Assembly: GCF_056746865.1 (NCBI RefSeq)
Contig: NZ_CM163382.1
Direction: 5' to 3' (one strand)
DNA: 64,000 nt
The position numbers were made by a program, and so were the translations under genes. The notes beneath the pieces are model-generated. The model saw only the letters and a list, made by a program, of their open reading frames with translations. It searched no databases and was not told where the DNA came from. Below are positions 18,441-64,000 of this stretch, piece after piece (the first letter of the stretch is position 1; the number at the start of each line of letters is the position of its first letter).

Positions 18441-19010
18441 GTGTGAACCCTCGCGATAATCCTATTTAAATTTTTGCTGAATAGATCACAGTCACGTTCT
18501 GTTTTGTATGAACTGTTTTCAGAGCCTGACTAAATATCCGTTTGGTCGTTACCGGCTTTAGCAAATACCTCACAGTGAATATTGGCTGATTAAAGCAGCG
18601 GCAAATTTATGCACTGTGATAAGCGGCTTTTTCAGAGAGAAAAACTCTCTGGCGATGGGTTTATAGTTTGTACTGCGCAGATGTTAATGTTTTGTTTGCT
18701 GTTATCTTATTGATATTTATCGGTCTATTTTTTGTTCTCAGGGCAGATATCATTAGGTTTATAGATTAATCTGATCTACCCATTTGTGGGTAAAAATACA
18801 CATAATGCGGGTGACATAATAGTTAATTAACTTTTGTTAGCGTTTTGAAATTAAAAACACCGTTCATCTGAAGAGATATTAATTTTTAACGATGATGGAG
18901 GGATAATTATATTTGATCTGGCACAAGTTTTACTGATGAAGAATGTAACTTGTGCCAGGGGTATTTTGCATTACGGTAATAATTATTACTTACAGATAAC
19001 CAGCGATCCG

Positions 19011-21538: not shown

Positions 21539-21769
21539 ATGGATCGGGCGCTACTGGACGGGGGTTATCGCTGTTATACCGGCGAAAAGATCGATGTCTA
21601 TTTCAATACTGCGATATGTCAGCATTCTGGCAATTGCGTACGTGGCAACGGCAAGTTATTTAATCTCAAACGTAAGCCGTGGATCATGCCGGATGAAGTC
21701 GACGTCGCCACTGTGGTGAAAGTGATTGATACGTGCCCGAGTGGCGCGCTGAAATACCGTCATAAATAA
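21539..21769 (+). CDS. yjdI: Zinc-ribbon family protein YjdI
   Basis: 76-aa ORF with Cys clusters; K-12 position upstream of yjdJ. Confidence 0.85.
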
Positions 21770-21780
21770 GCGAGGGTAAA

Positions 21781-22116
21781 ATGGAAATACGCGAAGGCCA
21801 CAATAAATTTTACATTAATGACGAACAGGGCAAGCAAATCGCTGAAATTGTCTTTGTGCCGACCGGAGAGAATTTAGCGATTATCGAACATACCGATGTC
21901 GATGAAAGCCTGAAAGGGCAAGGGATTGGTAAACAGCTGGTTGCGAAAGTCGTGGAAAAAATGCGTCGGGAAATCGAAAAATTATCCCATTATGTCCATT
22001 TGCGAAACACGAATTTGATAAAACGCGGGAGTATGATGATATTCGCAGTTGATGGGAGAGTACAGAGTCACGATATTTTTCATGCTCTCCGCGGGGTGAT
22101 GCAGGAGAGCATCTGA
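21781..22116 (+). CDS. yjdJ: GNAT-family acetyltransferase YjdJ, C-terminal region apparently frameshifted relative to the K-12 form
   Basis: First 64 aa match recalled YjdJ; the K-12-type C-terminus ([24 protein letters not shown]) is encoded in a different frame downstream of an A-run near 21970-21985, giving a 111-aa product here instead of 90 aa. Confidence 0.6.
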
Positions 22117-22280: not shown

Positions 22281-22577
22281 ATGGAAGGTAAAAACAAGTT
22301 CAATACTTATGTTGTTTCTTTTGATTATCCATCATCTTATTCCTCAGTGTTCTTAAGGTTAAGATCATTGATGTATGATATGAATTTCTCCTCTATCGTG
22401 GCTGATGAATATGGGATACCACGACAATTGAATGAAAATTCCTTCGCAATAACGACATCGTTAGCCGCAAGTGAAATCGAAGATTTAATCAGGCTTAAAT
22501 GCTTAGACTTACCGGATATTGATTTTGACCTCAACATTATGACCGTTGATGACTATTTCCGTCAGTTTTACAAGTAG
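22281..22577 (+). CDS. ghoS: Type V antitoxin GhoS (endoribonuclease)
   Basis: 98-aa ORF MEGKNKFNTYVVSFDYPSSY... matching recalled GhoS. Confidence 0.9.
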   Translation: MEGKNKFNTYVVSFDYPSSYSSVFLRLRSLMYDMNFSSIVADEYGIPRQLNENSFAITTSLAASEIEDLIRLKCLDLPDIDFDLNIMTVDDYFRQFYK

Positions 22578-22604: not shown

Positions 22605-22778
22605 ATGGCACTATTCTCTAAAATATTAATTTTTTATGTGATTGGTGTGAACATATCCTTTGTCATTATCTGGTTTATCTCACATGAGAAAACACATATT
22701 CGTTTACTTAGTGCATTCCTGGTAGGAATAACCTGGCCAATGAGTCTGCCTGTGGCATTACTTTTTTCTCTCTTTTAG
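22605..22778 (+). CDS. ghoT: Type V toxin GhoT (small membrane-lytic peptide)
   Basis: Hand translation MALFSKILIFYVIGVNISFVIIWFISHEKTHIRLLSAFLVGITWPMSLPVALLFSLF (57 aa), below the 60-aa ORF-track cutoff; immediately downstream of ghoS. Confidence 0.85.
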   Translation: MALFSKILIFYVIGVNISFVIIWFISHEKTHIRLLSAFLVGITWPMSLPVALLFSLF

Positions 22779-22895: not shown

Positions 22896-24413
22896 TTATT
22901 TCTGTGGGCGCATCGCTGGGAAGAGAATAACGTCGCGAATAGTATGGCTGTTAGTAAACAGCATAATCATTCGGTCGATACCAATACCCAGACCAGCGGT
23001 TGGCGGCAGACCATATTCCAGCGCAGTCACGTAATCTTCGTCATAGAACATGGCTTCGTCGTCACCTGCAGCTTTAGCGTTAACCTGTTCCTGGAAACGT
23101 TCAGCCTGGTCTTCTGCGTCGTTTAATTCGCTAAAACCATTACCGATTTCACGACCACCGATGAAGAATTCAAAACGGTCGGTGATTTCCGGGTTAACAT
23201 CATTACGGCGTGCCAGCGGTGACACTTCTGCCGGATATTCCGTAATAAAGGTTGGCTGAATCAGATGTGCTTCTGCCACTTCATCAAAGATCTCCGTCAC
23301 AATACGTCCCAGCCCCCAGCTTTTCTCTACCGTAATACCGATAGATTCAGCTAATGCTTTAGCAGCATCAAAATTATCCAGGTCGGCCATATCGGTTTCT
23401 GGACGATATTTTTTGATTGCTTCGCGCATGGTAAGTTTTTCAAACGGTTTGCCGAAATCAAACACATGCTCGCCATAAGTGACTTTAGTGGTACCAAGAA
23501 CCTCTTGTGCCAGGGTGCGGAACAGGGACTCCGTCAGTTCAATCAAATCGTGGTAATCCGCATACGCCATGTAGAGTTCCATCATTGTGAACTCAGGATT
23601 ATGGCGAACAGAAATACCTTCATTACGGAAGTTACGGTTGATTTCGAATACCCGTTCAAAACCGCCTACAACCAGACGTTTCAGATACAGCTCCGGCGCG
23701 ATACGCAGATACATATCTAAATCCAGAGCATTATGATGGGTAATAAACGGGCGAGCAGATGCCCCACCTGGAATTACCTGCATCATCGGGGTTTCTACTT
23801 CCATAAAGCCGCGCGCGACCATGAACTGACGGATAGCGGCCAGAATTTTTGAACGGACAACAAACGTTTGACGGGATTTATCGTTAGCGATGAGGTCCAG
23901 ATAACGTTGACGATAACGGACTTCCTGATCCTGCAGACCATGGAATTTATCTGGTAAAGGACGTAGTGCTTTAGTCAGCAGGCGCAGCTCAGTACAGTGA
24001 ATGGAAAGCTCACCCGTTTGCGTCTTAAACAGCGTACCGCGGGCACCGATAATGTCACCCAGATCCCATTTTTTAAACTGATCGTTATAAACACCTTCTG
24101 GCAGGCTATCTCTTGCAACGTACAGTTGAATACGGCCACCGACATCCTGCAACGTTACAAAGGAGGCTTTCCCCATGATACGACGGGTCATCATTCGGCC
24201 AGCAACCGAGACTTCAATGTTTAAGGATTCCAGTTCCTGGTTATCCTTCGCATCAAACTCTTCGTGCAACTGGTCAGAGGTATGGTCGCGGCGAAAATCA
24301 TTGGGAAACGCCACACCTTGCTGACGCAGTGCCGCCAGTTTTTCGCGGCGATTTCTCAGTTCATCGTTAAAATCAATAGCCTCATTGGCTCCCCGTGTTT
24401 CTCGTTCAGACAT
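22896..24413 (-). CDS. lysU: Lysine--tRNA ligase, inducible (LysU)
   Basis: ORF 22896..24440; start trimmed to [14 protein letters not shown]...; class II aaRS motifs. Confidence 0.95.
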
Positions 24414-24649
24414 TTTGGTTCCTCTAAATCCAGCTTTCAATTTAGCGTAGATAAAGAGACAGATCGGTACACTGTATTATCTGCCTCGACTATTAATAAC
24501 TCAGTTTATCTTATCGAAACTAACGCTTACCTCAAGTTGATATCACTAATAAATAACCATCAAAATGGTTTAAATGACTTATTAATCTCAATTTACTAGT
24601 GTGATAAACTGAAAGTTAATTTATTCATAACCAATTGTTTTTACGACAG

Positions 24650-47188: not shown

Positions 47189-47951
47189 GGTGGTGACTCC
47201 AATTAGTAGAACATATATTTTTCGATAAAGGCACCGATGACTTTTTCATGAAGTTCTACAGAGCGCGAGAAACAGATAGTTCTGCGGGCCAGACGTTTGA
47301 TTCGGGTTCTCAGAGGTAGATGTTGCGCTCAATGCGCTGAGTAAAAATCTTACCAGTCAGATGCTTCTCCTTCGGTAACTCTCTGGTGTAACTACCCCAT
47401 TCGTCAGTGGTCAACATACCGATGGTAAAAGGGCAAGCAGCGCCAGCAATTCACGACAGGTTTAATCAGTCCGTAGGCCAAAAGTGTAGGCCAGAACGCC
47501 ACCAGTTTTCGTGTTGTACGTGTACCAGAGCCAGTGCTGTCGCGCTTTACTGCCGACAAAACTCCATTGCTCATCAAGTTCGCAGATGAGTGCCATATCA
47601 GCATGAGCGACCGGGTATGACGTTATTCTTCGTGGCGAGAGTTTTTTAAAGTCCGGATGACAGTATTAATGCCGATTTTCAGCGTACGGGCAGTATCGCG
47701 AACTCCGGCACCGTTGAAAGCCATTTCAGTGATTTGCTCTTTAACTCCCGGTTTACGGGCCTCGTAACGGTAAGTGAGCTGAAGCACTCGATGACAGTCA
47801 CGGCAGCGAAATCGATCATGTCCTTTGGGTTCTTCCCGTGACGGTAAACCTGAACGGACTGGCAACAGGAGCAATGAAGGTTAACTGTGACCATGAAAGA
47901 ACCTTAAAAGTGGCTATTATACTCCTAATTCAACTAATTGGAGTCATTACC
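47189..47951 (-). mobile_element. IS1-family insertion sequence (divergent isoform), insB apparently degenerate
   Basis: Terminal inverted repeats ggtggtgactccaatt (47189-47204) and ggtaatgactccaatt (rc of 47936-47951); length 763 bp; insA intact; conserved TTAAAAAAC frameshift motif at insA end; InsB-like translation needs at least two further frame changes. Confidence 0.75.
47623..47874 (-). CDS. insA: IS1-family InsA (zinc-finger/HTH transposition regulator)
   Basis: 83-aa ORF with CxxC…CxxC zinc finger and C-terminal HTH resembling IS1 InsA (…GINTVIRTLKNS…). Confidence 0.8.
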   Translation of the reverse strand: MLLLPVRSGLPSREEPKGHDRFRCRDCHRVLQLTYRYEARKPGVKEQITEMAFNGAGVRDTARTLKIGINTVIRTLKNSRHEE

Positions 47952-50909: not shown

Positions 50910-52248
50910 CATAAGCGCTAACTTAAGGGTTGTGGTATTACGCCTGATATGATTTAACGTGCCGATGAATTACTCTCACGATAACTGGTCAGCAATTCTG
51001 GCCCATATTGGTAAGCCCGAAGAACTGGATACTTCGGCACGTAATGCCGGGGCTCTAACCCGCCGCCGCGAAATTCGTGATGCTGCAACTCTGCTACGTC
51101 TGGGGCTGGCTTACGGCCCCGGGGGGATGTCATTACGTGAAGTCACTGCATGGGCTCAGCTCCATGACGTTGCAACATTATCTGACGTGGCTCTCCTGAA
51201 GCGGCTGCGGAATGCCGCCGACTGGTTTGGCATACTTGCCGCACAAACACTTGCTGTACGCGCCGCAGTTACGGGTTGTACAAGCGGAAAGAGATTGCGT
51301 CTTGTCGATGGAACAGCAATCAGTGCGCCCGGGGGCGGCAGCGCTGAATGGCGACTACATATGGGATATGATCCTCATACCTGTCAGTTCACTGATTTTG
51401 AGCTAACCGACAGCAGAGACGCTGAACGGCTGGACCGATTTGCGCAAACGGCAGACGAGATACGCATTGCTGACCGGGGATTCGGTTCGCGTCCCGAATG
51501 TATCCGCTCACTTGCTTTTGGAGAAGCTGATTATATCGTCCGGGTTCACTGGCGAGGATTGCGCTGGTTAACTGCAGAAGGAATGCGCTTTGACATGATG
51601 GGTTTTCTGCGCGGGCTGGATTGCGGTAAGAACGGTGAAACCACTGTAATGATAGGCAATTCAGGTAATAAAAAAGCCGGAGCTCCTTTTCCGGCACGTC
51701 TCATTGCCGTATCACTTCCTCCCGAAAAAGCATTAATCAGTAAAACCCGACTGCTCAGCGAGAATCGTCGAAAAGGACGAGTAGTTCAGGCGGAAACGCT
51801 GGAAGCAGCGGGCCATGTGCTATTGCTAACATCATTACCGGAAGATGAATATTCAGCAGAGCAAGTGGCTGATTGTTACCGTCTGCGATGGCAAATTGAA
51901 CTGGCTTTTAAGCGGCTCAAAAGTTTGCTGCACCTGGATGCTTTGCGTGCAAAGGAACCTGAACTCGCGAAAGCGTGGATATTTGCTAATCTACTCGCCG
52001 CATTTTTAATTGACGACATAATCCAGCCATCGCTGGATTTCCCCCCCAGAAGTGCCGGATCCGAAAAGAAGAACTAACTCGTTGTGGAGAATAACAAAAA
52101 TGGTCATCTGGAGCTTACAGGTGGCCATTCGTGGGACAGTATCCCTGACAGCCTACAAAACGCAATTGAAGAACGCGAGGCATCGTCTTAACGAGGCACC
52201 GAGGCGTCGCATTCTTCAGATGGTTCAACCCTTAAGTTAGCGCTTATG
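50910..52248 (+). mobile_element. IS186 (IS4 family), apparently intact, with ~10-bp target site duplication
   Basis: Termini CATAAGCGCTAACTTAAGGG (50910-) and inverted copy ending 52248; flanking direct repeat ggggagtccc at 50900-50909 and 52249-52258 within a GC-rich palindrome. Confidence 0.9.
50959..52077 (+). CDS. IS186 transposase
   Basis: 372-aa ORF MPMNYSHDNWSAILAHIGKPEELDTSARNAG… matching recalled IS186 transposase. Confidence 0.9.
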   Translation: MPMNYSHDNWSAILAHIGKPEELDTSARNAGALTRRREIRDAATLLRLGLAYGPGGMSLREVTAWAQLHDVATLSDVALLKRLRNAADWFGILAAQTLAVRAAVTGCTSGKRLRLVDGTAISAPGGGSAEWRLHMGYDPHTCQFTDFELTDSRDAERLDRFAQTADEIRIADRGFGSRPECIRSLAFGEADYIVRVHWRGLRWLTAEGMRFDMMGFLRGLDCGKNGETTVMIGNSGNKKAGAPFPARLIAVSLPPEKALISKTRLLSENRRKGRVVQAETLEAAGHVLLLTSLPEDEYSAEQVADCYRLRWQIELAFKRLKSLLHLDALRAKEPELAKAWIFANLLAAFLIDDIIQPSLDFPPRSAGSEKKN

Positions 52249-52281
52249 GGGGAGTCCCCCGGGATATAATGAGGTACAGAG

Positions 52282-52737
52282 ATGCTGGATATAATCCTGG
52301 CGACGAGAGATATTTATTTTGAAAAAGCCCTGCGAGAGGTATTTGGAACCGTAAGCAGTCGAATCAGATATATAGAAGATGCCATATCAGACAGAAGAAG
52401 GGTGCAGTCAGGCAGGTCATTCAGATATTATTTTGTATTCTGTGATGATGAGTATACAGATATTGTTCGTATTCTTTTTACCGGAGAGGCCTGCTGTATT
52501 CTGAATAAGTCGATGCTGAATCTGAGAGCGGCCGGAGGTGTGTTGACGCTGGAAGAGCGCAGAGCGGTACTGAACCGGTATTACAGAGGTTTAAGTATTG
52601 CGGAGATTACAGAAGAGACGGGGCAGAATGACAAGACGGTATACGGTCATCTTCGTCGTGCACTGCAGCGGTCTGGATTCCGGAAGGGGCGTTTTATAAA
52701 GGGGAGAGAAGCGGCGGGGGATTCAGGTGTTGAATAA
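52282..52737 (+). CDS. Putative transcriptional regulator with C-terminal LuxR/sigma-70 region-4-like HTH
   Basis: 151-aa ORF; C-terminal LTLEERRAVLNRYYRGLSIAEITEETGQNDKTVYGHLRRALQR; GAGG-like RBS (gaggtacagagATG). Confidence 0.6.
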   Translation: MLDIILATRDIYFEKALREVFGTVSSRIRYIEDAISDRRRVQSGRSFRYYFVFCDDEYTDIVRILFTGEACCILNKSMLNLRAAGGVLTLEERRAVLNRYYRGLSIAEITEETGQNDKTVYGHLRRALQRSGFRKGRFIKGREAAGDSGVE

Positions 52738-53053
52738 TGTATCTTATATTGTGATATCGGTGCTGCTGCTGTTATTTTTTGTTGTATTTGTGACGAATGG
52801 TTAAGAATAAAACATGAGTTGGTGATTATCAGGACAGGTTGCTTGTATATGAAGATAACAAAGGCGGCATTTATTTTTGCGCTGTCAGTGTGGAGTGTTG
52901 CTGTGATATGTCTTTTATTATTTGTACTGGTTGTTCTGGGATAGCCATAGTGAAATAAAAAGCTGTCTGAATTAAATTATTTTGAACACATATTTTAATT
53001 CTGCACTAAATTCAGAATGACCCTGTAAATAATTCTGTGTAACTGCCGCCGTA

Positions 53054-54261
53054 TTAAAGGTGCTCGCTAAGGCGGTCACCGAACTCGATAATAAAACGGC
53101 TCATTGCCAGCCGCCAGTTCTGGATTGGCATACTCCATTTTTTGACGCCGACTGTATCGCCAGATAAATCACTTTTCGCACCGAGTCGTCCGTTGGGAAC
53201 ACCTTGCGCTTCTTTATCGCCTGCCGAATGACACTGTTCAGCGATTCGATGGCATTCGTCGTGTAGATGGCCTTGCGGATATCCGGTGGGTAACCGAAGA
53301 AGGTGTTGAGATTTTCCCAGTGTGTGCGCCAGCTCTTGCTGATTTGCGGGTATTTTTCATCCCAGACGCCTGCAAACTTATCCAACGCCATCAACGCCGT
53401 TTCCTCTGTCGGGGCCTGATATACCGCTTTCAGCCCGCTGGTGACGGCTTTGTAATCCTTCCACGACACGAATTTCAGGCTGTTGCGCACCATATGGATG
53501 ATGCAGAGCTGAATATGCGTCTGCGGGTACACGCTATTTATCGCTTCCGGGAAGCCTTTCAGGCCGTCCACGAAGGCGATAAGGATATCGTTCAGGCCGC
53601 GATTTTTCAGTTCCGTCAGTACATTCAGCCAGAACTTTGCACCTTCATTTTCGGCCAGCCACATATCCAGCAGCTCTTTCTGACCGTCGGTATTGATGCC
53701 CAGCGCGAGGAACACCGCTTTGTTAATGACACTCCCGCTGTGACGAACCTTAACCACAATACAGTCAAGATAAACAATGGGATACAGTGCATCCAACGGT
53801 CGGTTTTGCCATTCAGAGACCTGTTCTTTAACCGCATCGGTCACTTTGGATATCAGCGTGGGCGAGACATCGGCGTCGTACATTTCTTTGAAGGCTGAGG
53901 TAATTTCGCGGGTAGTCATCCCTCTGGCATACAGCGCCAGGATCTGGTTGTCCATGCCGGTAATGCGGGTCTGATTTTTCTTCACCAGTTGTGGTTCGAA
54001 GGTATTTTCACGGTCACGCGGCGTGTTAAGTTCGATCTCGCCATCATCGCACAATACCGTTTTTGACGAGTAGCCATTACGGGTATTAGAGCCTGATTTA
54101 GGAGCATTTTTCTCATGACCTAGATGGTCAGTCAGTTCTGCATTGAGCGCCGTTTCGACGGTAAGCTTTGTCAACATGCGTGAAAACTGGTTGAGGTCGG
54201 CTTCGGTTTTAAGGCCTTTGGCCAGTTCAGCCGCAAGGACTTTAAGTTTCTTTTCGTCCAT
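53054..54261 (-). pseudogene. IS256-family transposase, frameshifted near C-terminus
   Basis: ORF 53101..54261 matches IS256/mutator-type transposase; conserved C-terminal tail KKWSMPIQNWRLAMSRFIIEFGDRL is in another frame after a T/A homopolymer near 53117-53127. Confidence 0.8.
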
Positions 54262-54429
54262 CGTTTGCCTGTCTCCGTTGTTGGAGTGAACATATCAAAA
54301 ACAGGCAATTACACAATTTTAATTACAGTCTCTTCAGAATGGGTAATCAGTGACCGTCCTGACGGTCACTTTAAAGAAAATGCATATTACACAGAATGGT
54401 AAACAGGCTCAACATAGAGCTTGAAGGTA

Positions 54430-55058
54430 GTTGTTGCCTTGTAATAAAATGTGTGATTCATAGACATCGTTTCAATTTTCTCAGTTCAAGTTCAGGCTTG
54501 TAATTCTGTTCCTGTATATGCTCTTCATTGGGCTGATAGTTTGCATGAACGGCATCGGAGTATGGTGTTTTCTCAGCAAGTTCAAAGTAGCGTTCCATCG
54601 GAGTTTTACCGTTGTGAGCGCTATGAGGACGTTCCCTGTTATAGTAATGCTACCATTCTGCTAGCAATCCCTTCAGGTCATCAGCAGAAAGATCTACGGT
54701 AGCGTAAAACTCAGCTTTGTCTGTCTTTTGGGAACGTCCAACCTTTATTACATCAGGCGACAACTACCTTGAAAAACGCCGTTACTCACCGATCCCCTTC
54801 ACGGTAATACGCACTATTGCCAGTGAGATTGAATGAAGTCGTTTTAACTCGCTTTGAATACGTCTTGCACCCAGATTTCGCTGAGAACGTAACTTCCAGA
54901 ATCAGAGCGACTTCGCAAGTGCTGGTTTTCGTTGATGGTGAACGCTTGGAGCGACGGCTGTAGCTTTCCAGACCAGCGATGCCCTGAGCCAGATATCTGC
55001 GCCACCATTTACACAATGTGGGCCGAGAAGTGCCACAGTGACGGCATACAAATGTCAA
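54430..55058 (-). pseudogene. IS481/IS3-superfamily transposase remnant (N-terminal HTH fragment and C-terminal integrase-core fragment)
   Basis: 54786..55058 encodes …RPTLCKWWRRYLAQGIAGLESYSRRSKRSP… (HTH); 54430..54660 encodes …YYNRERPHSAHNGKTPMERY… (DDE core tail); internal deletion and in-frame stop. Confidence 0.5.
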
Positions 55059-55101
55059 CGACGGATGAAAAGTGGCTCTTACGCAACCTGGATGGAGATT
55101 T

Positions 55102-56119
55102 TCATGCCAGTGGACTCATGACCCTCTGCCTGAGTAGTTCAAATCCGGCTCGACCATACATCTGGCCTTTCAGCATTTTTAGTCGATTTACATGACTTTC
55201 GACAACCCCCATTATTCCAGCGACTGCTGATTGCCTCACATATAGCCGCAGCATCAGCTGCCATCCTTGCAGCCACGCGCCGAAGTTACCACTTTCTCGT
55301 TGCTCTTTTAACCACTCCCTCCATGGGGCCAGAAGTCCTCGCTCTGGAGGCCGGGTTGACATTTCAGGGAATGTTCCTGAACACACCCAGAGACTGACTG
55401 TCACACGTGATAAGCCTGTAATACGGGATATTTCCCCTGAACCCACATCCCTTGTTATGTAGTGCCATAACCTCTGTCCAACGCTGATGCCGTTTTTGGC
55501 GGGTTTGCTGTTTAAGGCGTTCCGGACGACGGAGCGATGCTACAGGCACAGACAGTACTGGCTTAGGTGATTTCTTTGGTGACAACCCACTGGCAACAAG
55601 ACGTATCAGAGGCATCTGTCTGTACATCATTCGTTCAGGCGCATCGCCAATATTTTTTAGCAGGTGCCATCGATCAGCTATCTGTCTGGCCTGAGGTGCA
55701 CCTTCACGTGCTGCTGTCGCATAGACTCCGCCACGGTCACGTGAGACAACCTGTATTTCCGGATATTTTCTGAACCAGGTCGCCAGCGTACTCTGATCGC
55801 AACCGGGAAGCAGGACGAGGGGACGGTGAGTATCAAGATTGACGATTAACGTGCCGTAATGGTGGCCCCGATGCCACGCCCACTCATCAATACCGACATG
55901 AGGCGCGCCCGACTGTTTCGTCTCCGGGGTATTAATAACCCTGCGAAGAAGAGTATCAGCACTGCAACGTAGCCCCACTGCCGTTGCTGCCTGTTTCCCG
56001 GCCTCACCTCCGGCTATTAATCCCGGTTGACGTTGTAAATTTTGTAACGCCTGTGAATACTGCTGATGTGAACTGTGAAGGGAGGCTGAGACTCGGCAAA
56101 ATTTTTCGTTAACAGGCAA
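55102..56119 (-). pseudogene. ISL3-family transposase, N-terminally truncated and frameshifted
   Basis: ORFs 55364..56119 and 55102..55446 in different frames; motifs DRWHLLKNIGDA and C-terminal VNRLKMLKGQMYGRAGFELLRQRV typical of ISL3 family. Confidence 0.6.
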
Positions 56120-56545
56120 GGGTTATGGCAGCACCAGAGTAAGATGCGTCTGGGCTGAGCAGGGTAAGTGCTGTATCTGGAGGCGATGGCATCTATGAAC
56201 TGAGTAGCTGTGCTTAAGGTATTCAACACATAGTGCTGTTTTGCATTTTCCGGGGAGATGGAGGGTTATATACCGTCAGAGCTAATAACTTCTTGACCGT
56301 ATTGCCATCAGCAAAGTAACCGTAGAAATCTCTTAAGTGAGTGTATTAAGTTACCCATAACTTAAAACGGCTTCACTGGTAAGCCTCATACATTTTCTTT
56401 CACTCAAGTTGTGGAAGCCCTCTTTCGTCGAACCGTTCGTTATAAATGCAAAAGATGTATGCTGACCCTCTCAAAGCCGAAATCATACAGAGTTTATGGA
56501 AAAGTGGTGAACCAGTCGCGTCGAAAGTAGATTGAGCTCATATCA

Positions 56546-57739
56546 TTACTTGCTTTTGCAGCAGCGCCAGATAAATACAGTCACCATGCTAAATAATACA
56601 GCGGCAAATAATGCCATCACAATCAGTGCTATTGCGACACCTGTTTTCGACACCAATGGTACCAACAACGCGCAAAGCCCATAGCCAAGTGTGTGACTGC
56701 AAGCGAGCCAGCCCGCGCCTGCGCCGTCGGCCAGCTTATCATTCAGTAAAAGTTGATAAGCGGGGGTTGCCAGAGCAGCTCCAAATGACAGCACTGCACA
56801 GCCTAGGTAAAACAACCATAGCTGTTCAGCGAGCATGATAGCCAGACCACTACTCATCAACACCCCGGCACTCAGGAGCAGAGCCACTGGAGTCAGGCGC
56901 TGTGGACGGAGTACCACGAACTGCGCGATAAGCGCAGCTATTGCGGACAGCCCCAACAACCACGCTACCTGTTGGCTAATAGTGGTGGTATCAGTGGCGA
57001 ACTGGCGAGTAAGGGCTGGAGAAAGTCCAAGCTGCATCATGCTCATTGCCGCAGCCAGTAACATTGCGCAAAGCAGATAAGGCAGGAAATCCCGCTTCAG
57101 GCTGACGCTCTTGCGCTCCGGTGTGGGCTGTGGTGGTGTGCCGGGCAACCGCAGAAGCATCACCAGTGCCAGCGCTGGCGCTGCCATCAGCATCCACACT
57201 GGCGCCAGAGGGTGAATGACCAACATTGCCGCCGCGCACAGCGGCCCGAATAGCCTGCCGCAGCTCAGGCCGGAGCTGATGGTTGCCAGAGCGGCCATGC
57301 GATTCCCATCTCCCGCTCTCTGCAATGCCCAGACCTGACAGGCTGGCACCATTGCTGACACGGTCAGACCGTAGACGATCCGGGCGATGATTAATATTCC
57401 CAACCCCACCGCTTTTGTTACGGCACCGGTAGCCATCAGCACGCTTCCCAGCCCAAGCAGGGTAAAGCTTACGCCATATCCTCCCAGAGCCCACAGCACC
57501 ACAGTCTTACTGCCAGTAAGGGAAATTTGCTTTCCCCACCATGGGGAAGATGGCAGAAACAGCATTGAGCCCAGCATCAGCAGGGCAGCCCATACAGACA
57601 GACTCAGATTTGTCTGTATGACCAGAACAGGGAGTACAACCAGCAGACCGTTCTGTCCGATACCGAGAAGACCGGCACTGAACGCCAGTGGCCAGCAGGA
57701 CAGGGTTTTTTGGGGCGTATCTTCGATCTTAGATGACAT
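56546..57739 (-). CDS. shiF: MFS transporter ShiF (aerobactin-locus associated)
   Basis: 397-aa 12-TM ORF divergent from iucA, as in aerobactin islands. Confidence 0.85.
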   Translation of the reverse strand: MSSKIEDTPQKTLSCWPLAFSAGLLGIGQNGLLVVLPVLVIQTNLSLSVWAALLMLGSMLFLPSSPWWGKQISLTGSKTVVLWALGGYGVSFTLLGLGSVLMATGAVTKAVGLGILIIARIVYGLTVSAMVPACQVWALQRAGDGNRMAALATISSGLSCGRLFGPLCAAAMLVIHPLAPVWMLMAAPALALVMLLRLPGTPPQPTPERKSVSLKRDFLPYLLCAMLLAAAMSMMQLGLSPALTRQFATDTTTISQQVAWLLGLSAIAALIAQFVVLRPQRLTPVALLLSAGVLMSSGLAIMLAEQLWLFYLGCAVLSFGAALATPAYQLLLNDKLADGAGAGWLACSHTLGYGLCALLVPLVSKTGVAIALIVMALFAAVLFSMVTVFIWRCCKSK

Positions 57740-57813
57740 TGTAATGTTTCAACACCATGTATTAATTGTGTTTATTTGTAAAATTAATTTTTCTGACAAT
57801 AACATTTCTCATT

Positions 57814-57832
57814 GATAATGATAATCATTATT
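57814..57832 (+). promoter_or_regulatory. Fur box in aerobactin promoter
   Basis: gataatgataatcattatt matches Fur consensus GATAATGATAATCATTATC at 18 of 19 positions; 40 bp upstream of iucA start. Confidence 0.8.
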
Positions 57833-57874
57833 GACATAATTGTTATTATTTTACTGTGTAGGAGCTGTTTGATT

Positions 57875-59599
57875 ATGATCCTGCCCTCTGAAAAATCCGC
57901 CACAGATGTGGCTGCGCAGTGCTTCCTGAATGCCTTGATTCGTGAAACCAAAGACTGGCAACTGGCGGAATACCCGCCAGACGAATTGATTATCCCGCTG
58001 GACGAACAGAAGTCGCTCCATTTCAGAGTGGCTTATTTCTCCCCAACCCAGCATCACTGCTTTGCATTTCCTGCTCATCTGGTCACGGCATCAGGCAGTT
58101 ATCCTGTCGATTTTACCACTCTCTCCCGGCTTATTATTGACAAGCTCCGGCATCAACTTTTTCTGCCAGTTCCCCTCTGCGAAACTTTCCACCAACGCGT
58201 GCTGGAAAGCTACGCCCATACGCAACAGACAATTGATGCCCGCCATGACTGGGCCATCCTGCGTGAGAAAGCGTTGAATTTTGGCGAGGCTGAGCAGGCA
58301 CTGCTGACAGGACACGCTTTCCACCCTGCACCTAAGTCTCATGAACCGTTTAACCGCCAGGAAGCTGAACGATACCTGCCTGACATGGCACCTCACTTCC
58401 CGCTGCGGTGGTTTTCGGTGGATAAAACGCAAATCGCTGGTGAAAGTCTGCATCTTAACCTTCAACAGCGGTTGACGCGATTTGCCGCAGAAAATGCGCC
58501 CCAGTTACTCAACGAATTAAGTGACAATCAATGGCTGTTCCCGCTGCACCCGTGGCAGGGAGAATATCTTTTGCAGCAGGTGTGGTGCCAGGCACTTTTT
58601 GCTAAAGGACTTATCAGAGACTTAGGCGAGGCCGGCACGTCGTGGCTGCCGACCACCTCTTCCCGCTCCCTCTACTGTGCTACCAGCCGCGATATGATCA
58701 AGTTCTCCCTGAGCGTTCGGCTGACCAACTCCGTCCGTACTCTGTCTGTGAAAGAGGTGGAGCGAGGAATGCGCCTGGCACGTCTGGCGCAAACCGACGG
58801 CTGGCAGATGCTACAGGCCCGCTTCCCTACTTTCCGGGTAATGCAGGAGGACGGCTGGGCCGGGCTGCGCGATCTTAACGGCAACATCATGCAGGAAAGT
58901 TTGTTTTCCCTGCGTGAAAACCTGCTGCTGGAGCAGCCGCAAAGCCAGACCAACGTTCTGGTTTCCCTGACTCAGGCCGCACCGGATGGCGGTGATTCGC
59001 TGCTGGTTTCGGCGGTAAAACGCCTGAGCGATCGCCTCGGTATCACTGTGCAACAGGCCGCCCACGCATGGGTCGATGCTTACTGTCAGCAGGTGCTGAA
59101 GCCTCTGTTTACGGCTGAAGCGGATTACGGCCTGGTGCTGCTGGCGCATCAGCAAAATATTCTTGTGCAGATGCTTGGGGATCTGCCGGTCGGATTTATT
59201 TACCGTGACTGCCAGGGCAGCGCGTTTATGCCTCACGCGACAGAGTGGCTCGATACCATTGACGAGGCGCAGGCGGAAAATATTTTCACCCGTGAGCAGT
59301 TGCTGCGCTATTTCCCTTATTACCTGCTGGTTAACTCCACTTTTGCCGTAACTGCTGCGCTGGGTGCTGCCGGGCTGGACAGCGAAGCGAATCTGATGGC
59401 TCGTGTACGAACATTGCTGGCTGAAGTGCGTGACCAGGTGACTCATAAAACCTGTCTCAACTATGTTCTGGAAAGTCCGTACTGGAACGTAAAAGGTAAC
59501 TTTTTCTGTTATCTGAACGATCATAACGAGAACACCATCGTTGACCCTTCGGTGATCTATTTTGATTTCGCTAACCCGCTGCAGGCTCAGGAGGTCTGA
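57875..59599 (+). CDS. iucA: Aerobactin synthetase IucA (NIS synthetase)
   Basis: ORF 57812..59599 trimmed to MILPSEKSATDVAAQCF… with GGAG RBS; IucA/IucC family. Confidence 0.93.
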   Translation: MILPSEKSATDVAAQCFLNALIRETKDWQLAEYPPDELIIPLDEQKSLHFRVAYFSPTQHHCFAFPAHLVTASGSYPVDFTTLSRLIIDKLRHQLFLPVPLCETFHQRVLESYAHTQQTIDARHDWAILREKALNFGEAEQALLTGHAFHPAPKSHEPFNRQEAERYLPDMAPHFPLRWFSVDKTQIAGESLHLNLQQRLTRFAAENAPQLLNELSDNQWLFPLHPWQGEYLLQQVWCQALFAKGLIRDLGEAGTSWLPTTSSRSLYCATSRDMIKFSLSVRLTNSVRTLSVKEVERGMRLARLAQTDGWQMLQARFPTFRVMQEDGWAGLRDLNGNIMQESLFSLRENLLLEQPQSQTNVLVSLTQAAPDGGDSLLVSAVKRLSDRLGITVQQAAHAWVDAYCQQVLKPLFTAEADYGLVLLAHQQNILVQMLGDLPVGFIYRDCQGSAFMPHATEWLDTIDEAQAENIFTREQLLRYFPYYLLVNSTFAVTAALGAAGLDSEANLMARVRTLLAEVRDQVTHKTCLNYVLESPYWNVKGNFFCYLNDHNENTIVDPSVIYFDFANPLQAQEV

Positions 59600-60547
59600 A
59601 TGTCTGGGGCAAACATTGTTCACAGCGGATATGGACTGCGCTGTGAAAAACTCGACAAGCCTCTGAATCTTGGCTGGGGGCTGGACAATAGCGCGGTGTT
59701 GCACTGGCCCGGGGAGCTGCCAACAGGATGGCTGTGCGACGCGCTGGATCAGATATTTATCGCCGCACCACAACTTTCAGCAGTGGTTCTTCCCTGGTCC
59801 GAATGGTGTGAGGAGCCACAGGCGCTGACGCTTTTCGGACAGGTACAAAGCGACATTATCCATCGTTCCGCTTTCTGGCAGTTACCGTTATGGCTGAGTT
59901 CTCCGGCAAACCGGGCCTCCGGTGAAATGGTTTTTGATGCAGAGCGTGAGATTTATTTCCCGCAGCGCCCCCCCCGTCCGCAGGGTGAAGTTTATCGTCG
60001 TTACGATCCACGCATTCGCAGGATGCTGAGTTTCCGCATTGCCGATCCCGTTTCTGATGCAGAACGTTTCACTCGCTGGATGAACGATCCGCGCGTTGAG
60101 TATTTCTGGGAGCAAAGTGGCTCACTGGAGGTACAGATCGCCTATCTGGAACGCCAGCTCACCAGTAAACATGCATTCCCGCTGATTGGTTGTTTCGACG
60201 ATCGGCCGTTCAGTTATTTCGAAATCTACTGGGCGGCGGAAGACCGCATTGGTCGCCACTATTCGTGGCAGCCCTTTGACCGTGGCCTGCATCTGCTGGT
60301 TGGTGAACAGCAATGGCGCGGAGCCCACTATGTGCAAAGCTGGCTGCGCGGGGTGACACATTACCTGCTGCTGAATGAGCCACGTACGCAGCGCACAGTA
60401 CTGGAGCCACGCACCGATAACCAGCGCCTGTTCCGCCATCTTGAGCCTGCGGGATACCGGACAATTAAAGAGTTCGACTTCCCACATAAACGCTCGCGCA
60501 TGGTGATGGCGGATCGTCATCACTTCTTCACGGAGGTCGGTCTGTAA
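59600..60547 (+). CDS. iucB: N6-hydroxylysine acetyltransferase IucB
   Basis: 315-aa ORF in operon position 2. Confidence 0.93.
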   Translation: MSGANIVHSGYGLRCEKLDKPLNLGWGLDNSAVLHWPGELPTGWLCDALDQIFIAAPQLSAVVLPWSEWCEEPQALTLFGQVQSDIIHRSAFWQLPLWLSSPANRASGEMVFDAEREIYFPQRPPRPQGEVYRRYDPRIRRMLSFRIADPVSDAERFTRWMNDPRVEYFWEQSGSLEVQIAYLERQLTSKHAFPLIGCFDDRPFSYFEIYWAAEDRIGRHYSWQPFDRGLHLLVGEQQWRGAHYVQSWLRGVTHYLLLNEPRTQRTVLEPRTDNQRLFRHLEPAGYRTIKEFDFPHKRSRMVMADRHHFFTEVGL

Positions 60548-62289
60548 TGAATCACAAAGACTGGGATTTGGTCAACCGCCGCTTGGTGGCAAAAATGTTG
60601 TCTGAGCTGGAGTATGAGCAGGTTTTCCACGCGGAATCTCAGGGCGATGACCGCTACTGCATTAACCTGCCGGGAGCACAATGGCGCTTCATCGCTGAAC
60701 GTGGTATCTGGGGCTGGCTCTGGATTGATGCTCAAACTCTGCGCTGCGCGGACGAGCCAGTACTGGCTCAGACGCTGCTGATGCAGCTAAAGCAGGTACT
60801 GTCAATGAGCGATGCAACCGTTGCTGAGCATATGCAGGATTTGTATTCCACGCTGCTGGGCGACCTGCAACTGCTGAAAGCCCGTCGCGGGCTGAGCGCC
60901 AGTGACCTGATTAATCTTAGTGCCGACCGCCTGCAATGCCTGCTGAGCGGTCATCCTAAATTCGTTTTTAATAAAGGTCGCCGTGGCTGGGGTAAAGAGG
61001 CGCTGGAACGATATGCGCCAGAGTATGCCAACACCTTTAGACTGCACTGGCTGGCGGTAAAACGTGAACATATGATCTGGCGCTGTGATAACGAGATGGA
61101 TATTCATCAGTTGTTGACGGCCGCAATGGATCCGCAGGAGTTTGCCCGCTTCAGTCAGGTCTGGCAGGAAAACGGACTGGATCATAACTGGCTGCCGCTG
61201 CCTGTACATCCGTGGCAGTGGCAGCAAAAAATCGCCACCGACTTCATCGCTGATTTTGCCGAAGGCAGGATGGTGTCTCTCGGCGAGTTTGGCGACCAGT
61301 GGCTCGCCCAGCAGTCGCTGCGTACCCTGACCAACGCCAGTCGCCGGGGTGGGCTGGATATCAAGCTGCCGCTGACCATCTACAACACCTCATGCTACCG
61401 GGGGATTCCTGGCAGATACATCGCTGCCGGACCACTGGCTTCACGCTGGCTACAACAGGTTTTTGCGACCGACGCTACCCTGGTGCAAAGCGGTGCAGTG
61501 ATCCTTGGTGAACCGGCTGCAGGCTATGTCTCCCATGAAGGCTATGCCGCGCTTGCCCGGGCTCCCTATCGCTACCAGGAAATGCTTGGTGTTATCTGGC
61601 GGGAGAATCCGTGCCGCTGGCTGAAACCGGATGAAAGTCCGGTTCTGATGGCAACACTGATGGAGTGCGACGAAAACGATCAGCCGCTGGCAGGCGCATA
61701 TATAGACCGCTCCGGGCTGGACGCTGAAACCTGGCTTACGCAACTGTTCCGGGTGGTCGTGGTTCCTCTGTATCACCTGCTTTGCCGCTACGGTGTCGCG
61801 CTTATTGCACATGGACAAAATATAACGCTCGCCATGAAAAAGGGGGTTCCACAGCGTGTTCTGCTGAAAGACTTCCAGGGCGATATGCGGCTGGTGAAAG
61901 AAGAGTTCCCCGAAATGGACTCTTTGCCTCAGGAGGTTCGTGATGTTACATCCCGCCTGAGTGCGGACTACTTAATCCATGATTTGCAGACGGGTCACTT
62001 CGTGACAGTACTGCGTTTTATTTCGCCACTGATGGTTCGTCTTGGCGTACCTGAACGGCGATTTTATCAACTGCTGGCAGCAGTGTTGAGTGATTACATG
62101 AAAAAACATCCACAAATGTCAGAGCGTTTTGCGCTTTTCTCACTTTTCAGGCCACAAATCATTCGCGTGGTGCTGAACCCGGTAAAACTGACCTGGCCTG
62201 ATCTGGATGGCGGCAGCCGCATGCTGCCGAATTACCTTGAGGATCTGCAAAATCCGCTGTGGCTGGTAACTCAGGAATATGAATCATGA
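60547..62289 (+). CDS. iucC: Aerobactin synthetase IucC
   Basis: 580-aa NIS synthetase paralogous to IucA. Confidence 0.93.
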   Translation: MNHKDWDLVNRRLVAKMLSELEYEQVFHAESQGDDRYCINLPGAQWRFIAERGIWGWLWIDAQTLRCADEPVLAQTLLMQLKQVLSMSDATVAEHMQDLYSTLLGDLQLLKARRGLSASDLINLSADRLQCLLSGHPKFVFNKGRRGWGKEALERYAPEYANTFRLHWLAVKREHMIWRCDNEMDIHQLLTAAMDPQEFARFSQVWQENGLDHNWLPLPVHPWQWQQKIATDFIADFAEGRMVSLGEFGDQWLAQQSLRTLTNASRRGGLDIKLPLTIYNTSCYRGIPGRYIAAGPLASRWLQQVFATDATLVQSGAVILGEPAAGYVSHEGYAALARAPYRYQEMLGVIWRENPCRWLKPDESPVLMATLMECDENDQPLAGAYIDRSGLDAETWLTQLFRVVVVPLYHLLCRYGVALIAHGQNITLAMKKGVPQRVLLKDFQGDMRLVKEEFPEMDSLPQEVRDVTSRLSADYLIHDLQTGHFVTVLRFISPLMVRLGVPERRFYQLLAAVLSDYMKKHPQMSERFALFSLFRPQIIRVVLNPVKLTWPDLDGGSRMLPNYLEDLQNPLWLVTQEYES

Positions 62290-63563
62290 AAAAAAGTGTC
62301 GATTTTATTGGTGTAGGGACAGGGCCATTTAATCTCAGCATTGCTGCGTTGTCACATCAGATCGAAGAACTGGACTGTCTCTTCTTTGATGAACATCCTC
62401 ATTTTTCCTGGCATCCGGGTATGCTGGTACCGGATTGTCATATGCAGACCGTCTTTCTGAAAGATCTGGTCAGTGCTGTTGCACCTACAAATCCCTACAG
62501 CTTTGTTAACTATCTGGTGAAGCACAAAAAGTTCTATCGCTTCCTTACAAGCAGACTACGTACAGTATCCCGTGAAGAGTTTTCTGACTACCTCCGCTGG
62601 GCTGCTGAAGATATGAATAACCTGTATTTCAGTCATACCGTTGAAAACATTGATTTCGATAAAAAACGTCGATTGTTTCTGGTGCAAACCAGCCGGGGAG
62701 AATATTTTGCCCACAATATCTGCCTTGGTACAGGAAAACAACCTTATTTACCACCCTGTGTGAAGCATATGACACAATCCTGTTTCCATGCCAGTGAAAT
62801 GAATCTTCGTCGGCCGGACCTTAGTGAAAAACGGGTAACCGTGGTTGGTGGAGGACAGAGTGGTGCAGACCTGTTCCTTAATGCATTACGCGGGGAATGG
62901 GGAGAAGCGGCGGAAATAAACTGGATCTCCCGGCGGAATAATTTTAACGCACTGGATGAGGCTGCTTTTGCTGATGAGTATTTTACACCTGAATATATTT
63001 CAGGCTTCTCCGGACTGGAGGAAGATATTCGCCATCAGTTACTGGATGAGCAGAAAATGACATCGGATGGCATCACTGCCGATTCTTTACTGACCATTTA
63101 TCGTGAGTTGTACCACCGTTTTGAAGTTCTGAGAAAACCAAGAAATATCCGTCTGCTACCCAGCCGCTCGGTAACAACTCTGGAAAGTAGTGGTCCTGGC
63201 TGGAAGTTGCTGATGGAGCATCATCTGGATCAGGGCAGGGAGAGCCTGGAAAGTGATGTGGTGATTTTCGCCACAGGTTACCGTTCTGCGTTGCCACAAA
63301 TACTTCCCTCACTGATGCCGCTGATCACCATGCACGATAAGAACACCTTTAAAGTGCGTGATGACTTCACTCTGGAATGGAGTGGCCCGAAAGAGAACAA
63401 CATCTTCGTGGTCAACGCCAGTATGCAAACCCATGGCATCGCCGAACCTCAGCTCAGCCTGATGGCATGGAGATCTGCACGTATTCTTAATCGTGTAATG
63501 GGACGTGATTTATTCGATCTCAGTATGCCGCCCGCCCTGATTCAGTGGCGCAGCGGCACCTAG
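62286..63563 (+). CDS. iucD: L-lysine N6-monooxygenase IucD (FAD/NADPH)
   Basis: 425-aa ORF with N-terminal GxGxxN dinucleotide motif (IGVGTGPFNLS). Confidence 0.93.
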   Translation: MKKSVDFIGVGTGPFNLSIAALSHQIEELDCLFFDEHPHFSWHPGMLVPDCHMQTVFLKDLVSAVAPTNPYSFVNYLVKHKKFYRFLTSRLRTVSREEFSDYLRWAAEDMNNLYFSHTVENIDFDKKRRLFLVQTSRGEYFAHNICLGTGKQPYLPPCVKHMTQSCFHASEMNLRRPDLSEKRVTVVGGGQSGADLFLNALRGEWGEAAEINWISRRNNFNALDEAAFADEYFTPEYISGFSGLEEDIRHQLLDEQKMTSDGITADSLLTIYRELYHRFEVLRKPRNIRLLPSRSVTTLESSGPGWKLLMEHHLDQGRESLESDVVIFATGYRSALPQILPSLMPLITMHDKNTFKVRDDFTLEWSGPKENNIFVVNASMQTHGIAEPQLSLMAWRSARILNRVMGRDLFDLSMPPALIQWRSGT

Positions 63564-63644
63564 GGAAAACGCAGCCGGAGGCTGCTTCTTTAACTCGCTA
63601 CACAGCATCTTTGGGCTGATTTTTTCCGCCCGTGTGGAGGAATA

Positions 63645-64000
63645 ATGATGATAAGCAAAAAGTATACGCTTTGGGCTCTCAACCCACTGCTTCTTACCAT
63701 GATGGCGCCAGCAGTCGCTCAACAAACCGATGATGAAACGTTCGTGGTGTCTGCCAACCGCAGCAATCGCACCGTAGCGGAGATGGCACAAACCACCTGG
63801 GTTATCGAAAACGCCGAACTGGAACAGCAGATTCAGGGCGGCAAAGAGCTTAAGGACGCACTGGCTCAGCTGATCCCTGGCCTTGACGTCAGCAGCCGGA
63901 GCCGCACCAACTACGGTATGAATGTGCGTGGCCGCCCGCTGGTCGTGCTGGTTGACGGCGTGCGTCTCAACTCTTCACGTACCGACAGCCGACAACTGGA
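63645..64000 (+). CDS. iutA: Ferric aerobactin TonB-dependent receptor IutA (5' part only; continues past window end)
   Basis: MMISKKYTLWALNPLLLTMMAPAVAQQTDDETFVVSANRS… signal peptide plus TonB-box region; open to window end. Confidence 0.85.
   Translation, partial: MMISKKYTLWALNPLLLTMMAPAVAQQTDDETFVVSANRSNRTVAEMAQTTWVIENAELEQQIQGGKELKDALAQLIPGLDVSSRSRTNYGMNVRGRPLVVLVDGVRLNSSRTDSRQL

Follow-up and report, generated by a model that had tools for sequence, protein, structure and literature searches.

A private frameshift in the minimal GNAT gene yjdJ of one Escherichia coli genome, a broken gene or a local assembly error

YjdJ of Escherichia coli, whose structure has been solved (PDB ID: 5I0C), belongs to the minimal GNAT family PF14542 (Acetyltransf_CG), and a relative from S. 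aureus is also structurally characterized (PDB ID: 1R57 and 2H5M). In GNAT enzymes, one side of the acetyl-CoA cleft is formed by strand β5. We take the conserved Cys of the minimal GNAT family (Cys72 of YjdJ) to be the residue that the Pfam description proposes beside the acetyl group of acetyl-CoA, and structural work on At1g77540 reportedly led to the proposal that the conserved Cys of a minimal GNAT protein lies next to this group. YjdJ was among the GNAT clones of a lysine-acetyltransferase screen published in 2018 (PMC6199490), and the ST131 espC island was described as being inserted at the yjdJ locus, where copies of yjdJ border it (PMC5538559).

The window, by which we mean the whole 64,000-nt stretch of DNA that was analyzed, shares the locus of the described E. 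coli yjdJ. The ORF at 21781..22116 (+) has yjdI on one side and ghoS-ghoT on the other, within a locus bounded by dcuS and a lysine-tRNA ligase gene; both synteny and sequence identify it as the orthologue of yjdJ. The upstream gene yjdI (21539..21769, +), encoding a 4Fe-4S mono-cluster protein, is intact and ends 11 nt upstream of the ATG of yjdJ. The downstream genes ghoS (22281..22577, +) and ghoT (22605..22778, +), which form a type V toxin-antitoxin pair, are intact as well.

The yjdJ ORF of the window starts with ATG, is preceded by a GAGGG ribosome-binding site, and comprises 111 codons up to a new TGA stop at 22114-22116, whereas intact YjdJ has 90 residues. Codons 1-64 (21781..21972, +) encode the same residues as the intact YjdJ of E. 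coli strains 118UI and PK8275, including β1-β4, the GQGIGKQ CoA-binding loop, and the helix at residues 49-63; compared with K-12 YjdJ, 63 of these 64 residues are the same, residue 15 being Glu in the window and Lys in K-12. The following 47 codons (21973..22113, +) encode an out-of-frame replacement tail, residues 65-111, of which the last 21 codons (22053-22113) enter the yjdJ-ghoS intergenic region. The native tail of 25 residues, comprising β5, the invariant Cys72, and the C-terminal helix, is still encoded in the -1 frame at 21975..22052 (+), with its own stop TGA at 22050-22052; the new stop is located 64 nt past this native stop, within the yjdJ-ghoS spacer. The ORF and the alignment therefore bear out the initial annotation of this region, which had described a 111-residue product consisting of 64 YjdJ-like residues and a 47-residue new tail, with the conserved tail in a different frame. 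The annotation had also suggested alignment with K-12 yjdJ as a check, and in this alignment K-12 and all other references keep the 90-residue frame and tail.

The frame change was traced to position 21974, where AA in the references is replaced by T in the window (AAAAACG versus AAATCG at 21971..21976, +), giving a net loss of one base. The reference sequence GGGAAAAACG reads GGGAAATCG in the window, and a three-way DNA alignment together with a 46-kb pairwise comparison showed GGGAAAAACGAAAAATT in all references and GGGAAATCGAAAAATT in the window. The lesion consists of one deletion and an adjacent A-to-T transversion in the first of two A5 runs. The first changed codon is codon 65, from AAA (Lys) to ATC (Ile), and the downstream sequence is read one base late up to the TGA at 22114-22116. 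Runs of A6, A5, and A5 occur within 27 nt around the site, forming the A-rich tract GGAAAAAATGCGTCGGGAAAAACGAAAAATT. The lesion differs specifically from every reference, and chance is not an issue. The 1-bp frame change in an A-run that had been proposed for this gene was thus correct as to the net loss of one base, but its cause is an AA-to-T change rather than a pure homopolymer slip.

Templated mutagenesis from a quasi-palindrome or direct-repeat donor was considered for the AA-to-T change and rejected, since the best donor within 1.5 kb on either side was a 9-mer 500 nt away, for which approximately 0.2 occurrences were expected by chance. A phase-variable contingency locus was likewise rejected, since the tracts are only A6, A5, and A5, compared with the 7-8 bases or more that are typical.

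Next, we compared the product with the family. Intact YjdJ matched PF14542 with 87 bits over profile positions 1-80, whereas the window protein reached 49.7 bits over positions 1-56 of 80, a score that still exceeds the gathering score of the family (30 bits). In an alignment of 69 full-length homologues taken from a 50%-clustered protein library (36-71% identity), Cys72 was the only invariant column and Pro70 was nearly invariant, and both fall in the replaced segment. Consequently, profile positions 57-80 are missing from the window protein, and Cys72 of the PLCPF motif is not in frame. GNAT motif A, the CoA pyrophosphate-binding loop GQGIGKQ (residues 46-52; Q/R-x-x-G-x-G/A), is kept unchanged, including Gly46, which is nearly invariant in the family. 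The AlphaFold2 model of intact YjdJ, built on the 69-homologue alignment, had a pLDDT of 97.6 and placed β5 at residues 67-70 and the C-terminal helix at residues 73-81. In the model of the 111-residue variant, residues 1-64 were confident, while the new tail, with a pLDDT of approximately 51-62, stood in place of the β5 and C-terminal helix that complete the GNAT core. A search with the 47-residue tail alone yielded no Pfam family match. From the loss of Cys72, β5, and the C-terminal helix and from a tail that belongs to no family, we infer that the 111-residue product is almost certainly inactive.

We then examined how widely this allele occurs. Among 5,426 complete E. coli genomes, 5,369 hold the 71-nt stretch around the lesion; all 5,369 have the single-frame arrangement of the 90-residue protein at this site, and none has the window allele, the best identity being 97.2%, which corresponds to two differing alignment columns. 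The exact 111-residue sequence was not found in a collection of approximately 15 billion proteins, in which the intact 90-residue allele of the same background is present on at least 1000 contigs, and an exact 27-mer over the junction had no match in the JGI metagenome collection. These searches show the allele to be private to this genome.

When the out-of-frame tail was used as the query of a protein search, only 10 proteins were retrieved, all of them other broken yjdJ alleles found on 1-5 contigs each, and the REIEKLSHY junction of the window occurred in none of the 10. These sporadic alleles share the out-of-frame tail of the window (44 residues) and its stop, but each has a different lesion: one has a -1 change in the second A5 run (P0016), whereas the window lesion is in the first; others have internal deletions (P0017-P0020, P0023, and P0024) or a double frame change (P0049), unlike the window. 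Further YjdJ variants consisting of the N-terminal part only were found in the representative protein library. Length variation at the A tracts of yjdJ is very rare: the intact allele is present on at least 1000 contigs, and individual variant alleles on 1-5. Therefore, yjdJ is occasionally broken in public assemblies and otherwise strongly conserved, and the sporadic occurrence of disrupted alleles suggests that the gene tolerates loss.

Two further observations concern yjdJ-like sequences in public data. Many YjdJ-like proteins from other Enterobacteriaceae, approximately 80% identical (P0026-P0043), carry unrelated C-terminal extensions or replacements that begin at various points after residues 60-89, which suggests that public assemblies contain sporadic frameshifts, read-through, or chimeric contigs. 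Some other E. coli genomes carry two partial copies of the yjdJ stretch in which the lesion lies.

To judge the surrounding assembly, we compared the window with its closest relatives. The closest complete genome, PK8275 (chicken, Pakistan), has three differing alignment columns over window positions 1-32300, two of which are the yjdJ lesion, so that its yjdJ is the same as that of the window except for the lesion. The third, at 18744 in the dcuB-dcuR intergenic region, is C in the window and A in PK8275; here the window agrees with 118UI and K-12, which makes the difference private to PK8275. Window positions 52226-64000 are 100% identical to PKF11. Over these two segments (44,075 nt in total), the yjdJ lesion is the sole private change, and all 178 homopolymer runs of at least five bases, including three runs of eight and one of 10, are unchanged relative to the relatives. 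A generally error-prone assembly was rejected on these grounds.

Given an assembly that is not indel-prone and a lesion that includes a substitution, a real mutation is favored, and we consider it somewhat probable that a very recent, strain-private mutation broke yjdJ and made it a pseudogene. The AA-to-T change at 21974 in the first A5 run of the gene would have shifted the frame after codon 64. The resulting product would retain the N-terminal β-sheet, the CoA pyrophosphate-binding loop, and the helix at residues 49-63, and would lack β5, the invariant Cys72, and the C-terminal helix, with 47 unrelated residues added. Such a product is predicted to be non-functional and probably unstable, and yjdJ would accordingly be a pseudogene in this strain.

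The main competitor is a local assembly or consensus error, in which the yjdJ of the organism is intact and the AA-to-T change arose from base-calling or polishing in the A-rich tract. This explanation has a substantial chance of being right, if a somewhat less than even one, and several observations point to it at the expense of a real mutation. None of the other genomes, protein records, or metagenome contigs searched confirms the allele independently. Over 44 kb, only one private difference separates the window from its near-identical relatives, and it is an indel-type change, while among real mutations substitutions normally outnumber indels. The lesion also lies in the low-complexity A6...A5...A5 tract, where consensus errors concentrate, and single-base homopolymer indels in the relative PK8276, which are typical of long-read assemblies, hint at such assemblies in this clade. 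However, the 178 unaltered runs noted above are all of the other homopolymer runs of at least five bases in the segments compared, the combination of a deletion and a transversion is no simple length error, and direct reading of the sequence found no Dam or Dcm methylation motif over the site. A homopolymer sequencing error had been offered from the outset as the alternative to a changed gene; a consensus error is still a candidate, but no homopolymer errors appeared in the rest of the assembly, and the change itself is of a different type.

A leaky gene is very unlikely. In this model, tRNA-Lys would occasionally slip by -1 on GAA AAA T (21976..21982, +), in the second A5 run and hypothetically the sole place for a return to the native frame, giving a near-native 90-residue YjdJ with K65I and R66E, and active enzyme would persist in the strain at a low level. 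The single tRNA-Lys of E. coli is prone to slipping on A-runs. The frames fit exactly, and the product of a slip in the A5 run at 21977-21981 has 90 residues and scores 83.1 bits against PF14542, compared with 87 for the wild type. However, the site contains no X XXY YYZ heptamer, the zero-frame context C GAA AAA TTA permitting a single-tRNA slip at most; the fold of 21960-22060 (-19.2 kcal/mol; z = +0.25 against shuffles) has no unusual stability downstream; and no convincing Shine-Dalgarno-like stimulator lies upstream. The two-frame arrangement also occurs in no relative because the allele is private, and an A5 run yields just background slippage. The window resembles dnaX-type programmed -1 frameshifting only superficially, in that an A-run follows closely on the lesion and the native frame would be restored by a -1 shift there, and programmed recoding was rejected since the window has no canonical slippery heptamer, stimulatory structure, or conservation. 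Speculatively, background slippage could make traces of near-native YjdJ, and the A6/A5/A5 tract might give yjdJ a weak switch that works through mutation or translation.

That the 111-residue protein is a functional, strain-specific acetyltransferase with a new C-terminus is hardly credible: no stop interrupts the 111 codons, and the ribosome-binding site, start codon, and CoA-binding loop are retained, but Cys72 and two core secondary-structure elements (β5 and the C-terminal helix) are gone, the tail has no Pfam match and low model confidence, its homologues elsewhere are only sporadic broken yjdJ alleles on 1-5 contigs each, and the allele has not spread in the population. Of the two outcomes that the initial annotation had named for the enzyme, inactivated or modified, the former was retained and the latter set aside.

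Since the window ORF fails the defining C-terminal features of the family, it represents no new protein; either a frameshift has made yjdJ a pseudogene, or the assembly is wrong at this site. Non-essential genes of E. coli are commonly found as frameshift pseudogenes, and the window offers either an unremarkable gene disruption or a sequencing error confined to this site. Should the lesion be genuine, a small GNAT-like protein that is not essential has been lost from a single strain, whose lineage is closest to avian E. coli isolates, which would add one more data point for the dispensability of yjdJ; if it is an artefact, the result is a single-base correction to an assembly. For annotation, the 111-residue ORF calls either for correction or for a label that marks it as a yjdJ pseudogene caused by a frameshift, and it should not enter databases as a new protein.

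An effect of the frameshift on ghoS/ghoT is unlikely, as these genes begin 165 nt past the new yjdJ stop and their DNA is the same as in PK8275. In the read-through region, we found no Rfam match at E-values up to 1 and no terminator-like site, and a 9-bp hairpin (22083-22091 pairing with 22105-22113) was not exceptional (fold z = -1.3). After the native yjdJ stop, at 22056-22113, the segments GGGAGAG (22056), ATGCTCTCC (22083-22091), and GGAGAGCAT (22105-22113) are mutually complementary, so that alternative hairpins are possible; no T-run follows them, and in the frameshifted allele ribosomes would translate across them. Beyond ghoT, we take the lysine-tRNA ligase gene at the dcuS...cadCBA position (22896-24440, -) to be lysU, the inducible paralogue. 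The gene at this position was named lysU in a 2017 paper (PMC5538559) and is labeled lysS by PGAP in related records, a naming quirk and no sequence anomaly.

Several side observations were made in the remainder of the window. PK8276 (L005) is one base short at each of window positions 47923, 48065, and 51331, two of these sites lying in T5 and G5 runs. PKF11 sides with the window at 47923 and 48065, which suggests that these indels are on the PK8276 side, possibly as long-read assembly errors. The iucD gene (window positions 62286-63619; ORF 62286..63563, 425 residues) is annotated by PGAP as frameshifted in PKF11 and PK8276, and here the window is 100% identical to PKF11. An assembly error or private lesion in iucD was rejected, since the same length without indels occurs in hundreds of unrelated chromosomes and plasmids, representing a widespread 425-residue allele. 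Downstream of cadC, window positions 32300-64000 constitute a mosaic genomic island with a degenerate integrase, ParDE and CbtA/YeeU toxin-antitoxin modules, antirestriction and DUF genes of the CP4-44 type, a YadA-like adhesin, many IS remnants, and the aerobactin operon iucABCD-iutA. As closest relatives we found the avian Faisalabad isolates PK8275, PK8261, PK8276, and PKF11, together with SMS-3-5.
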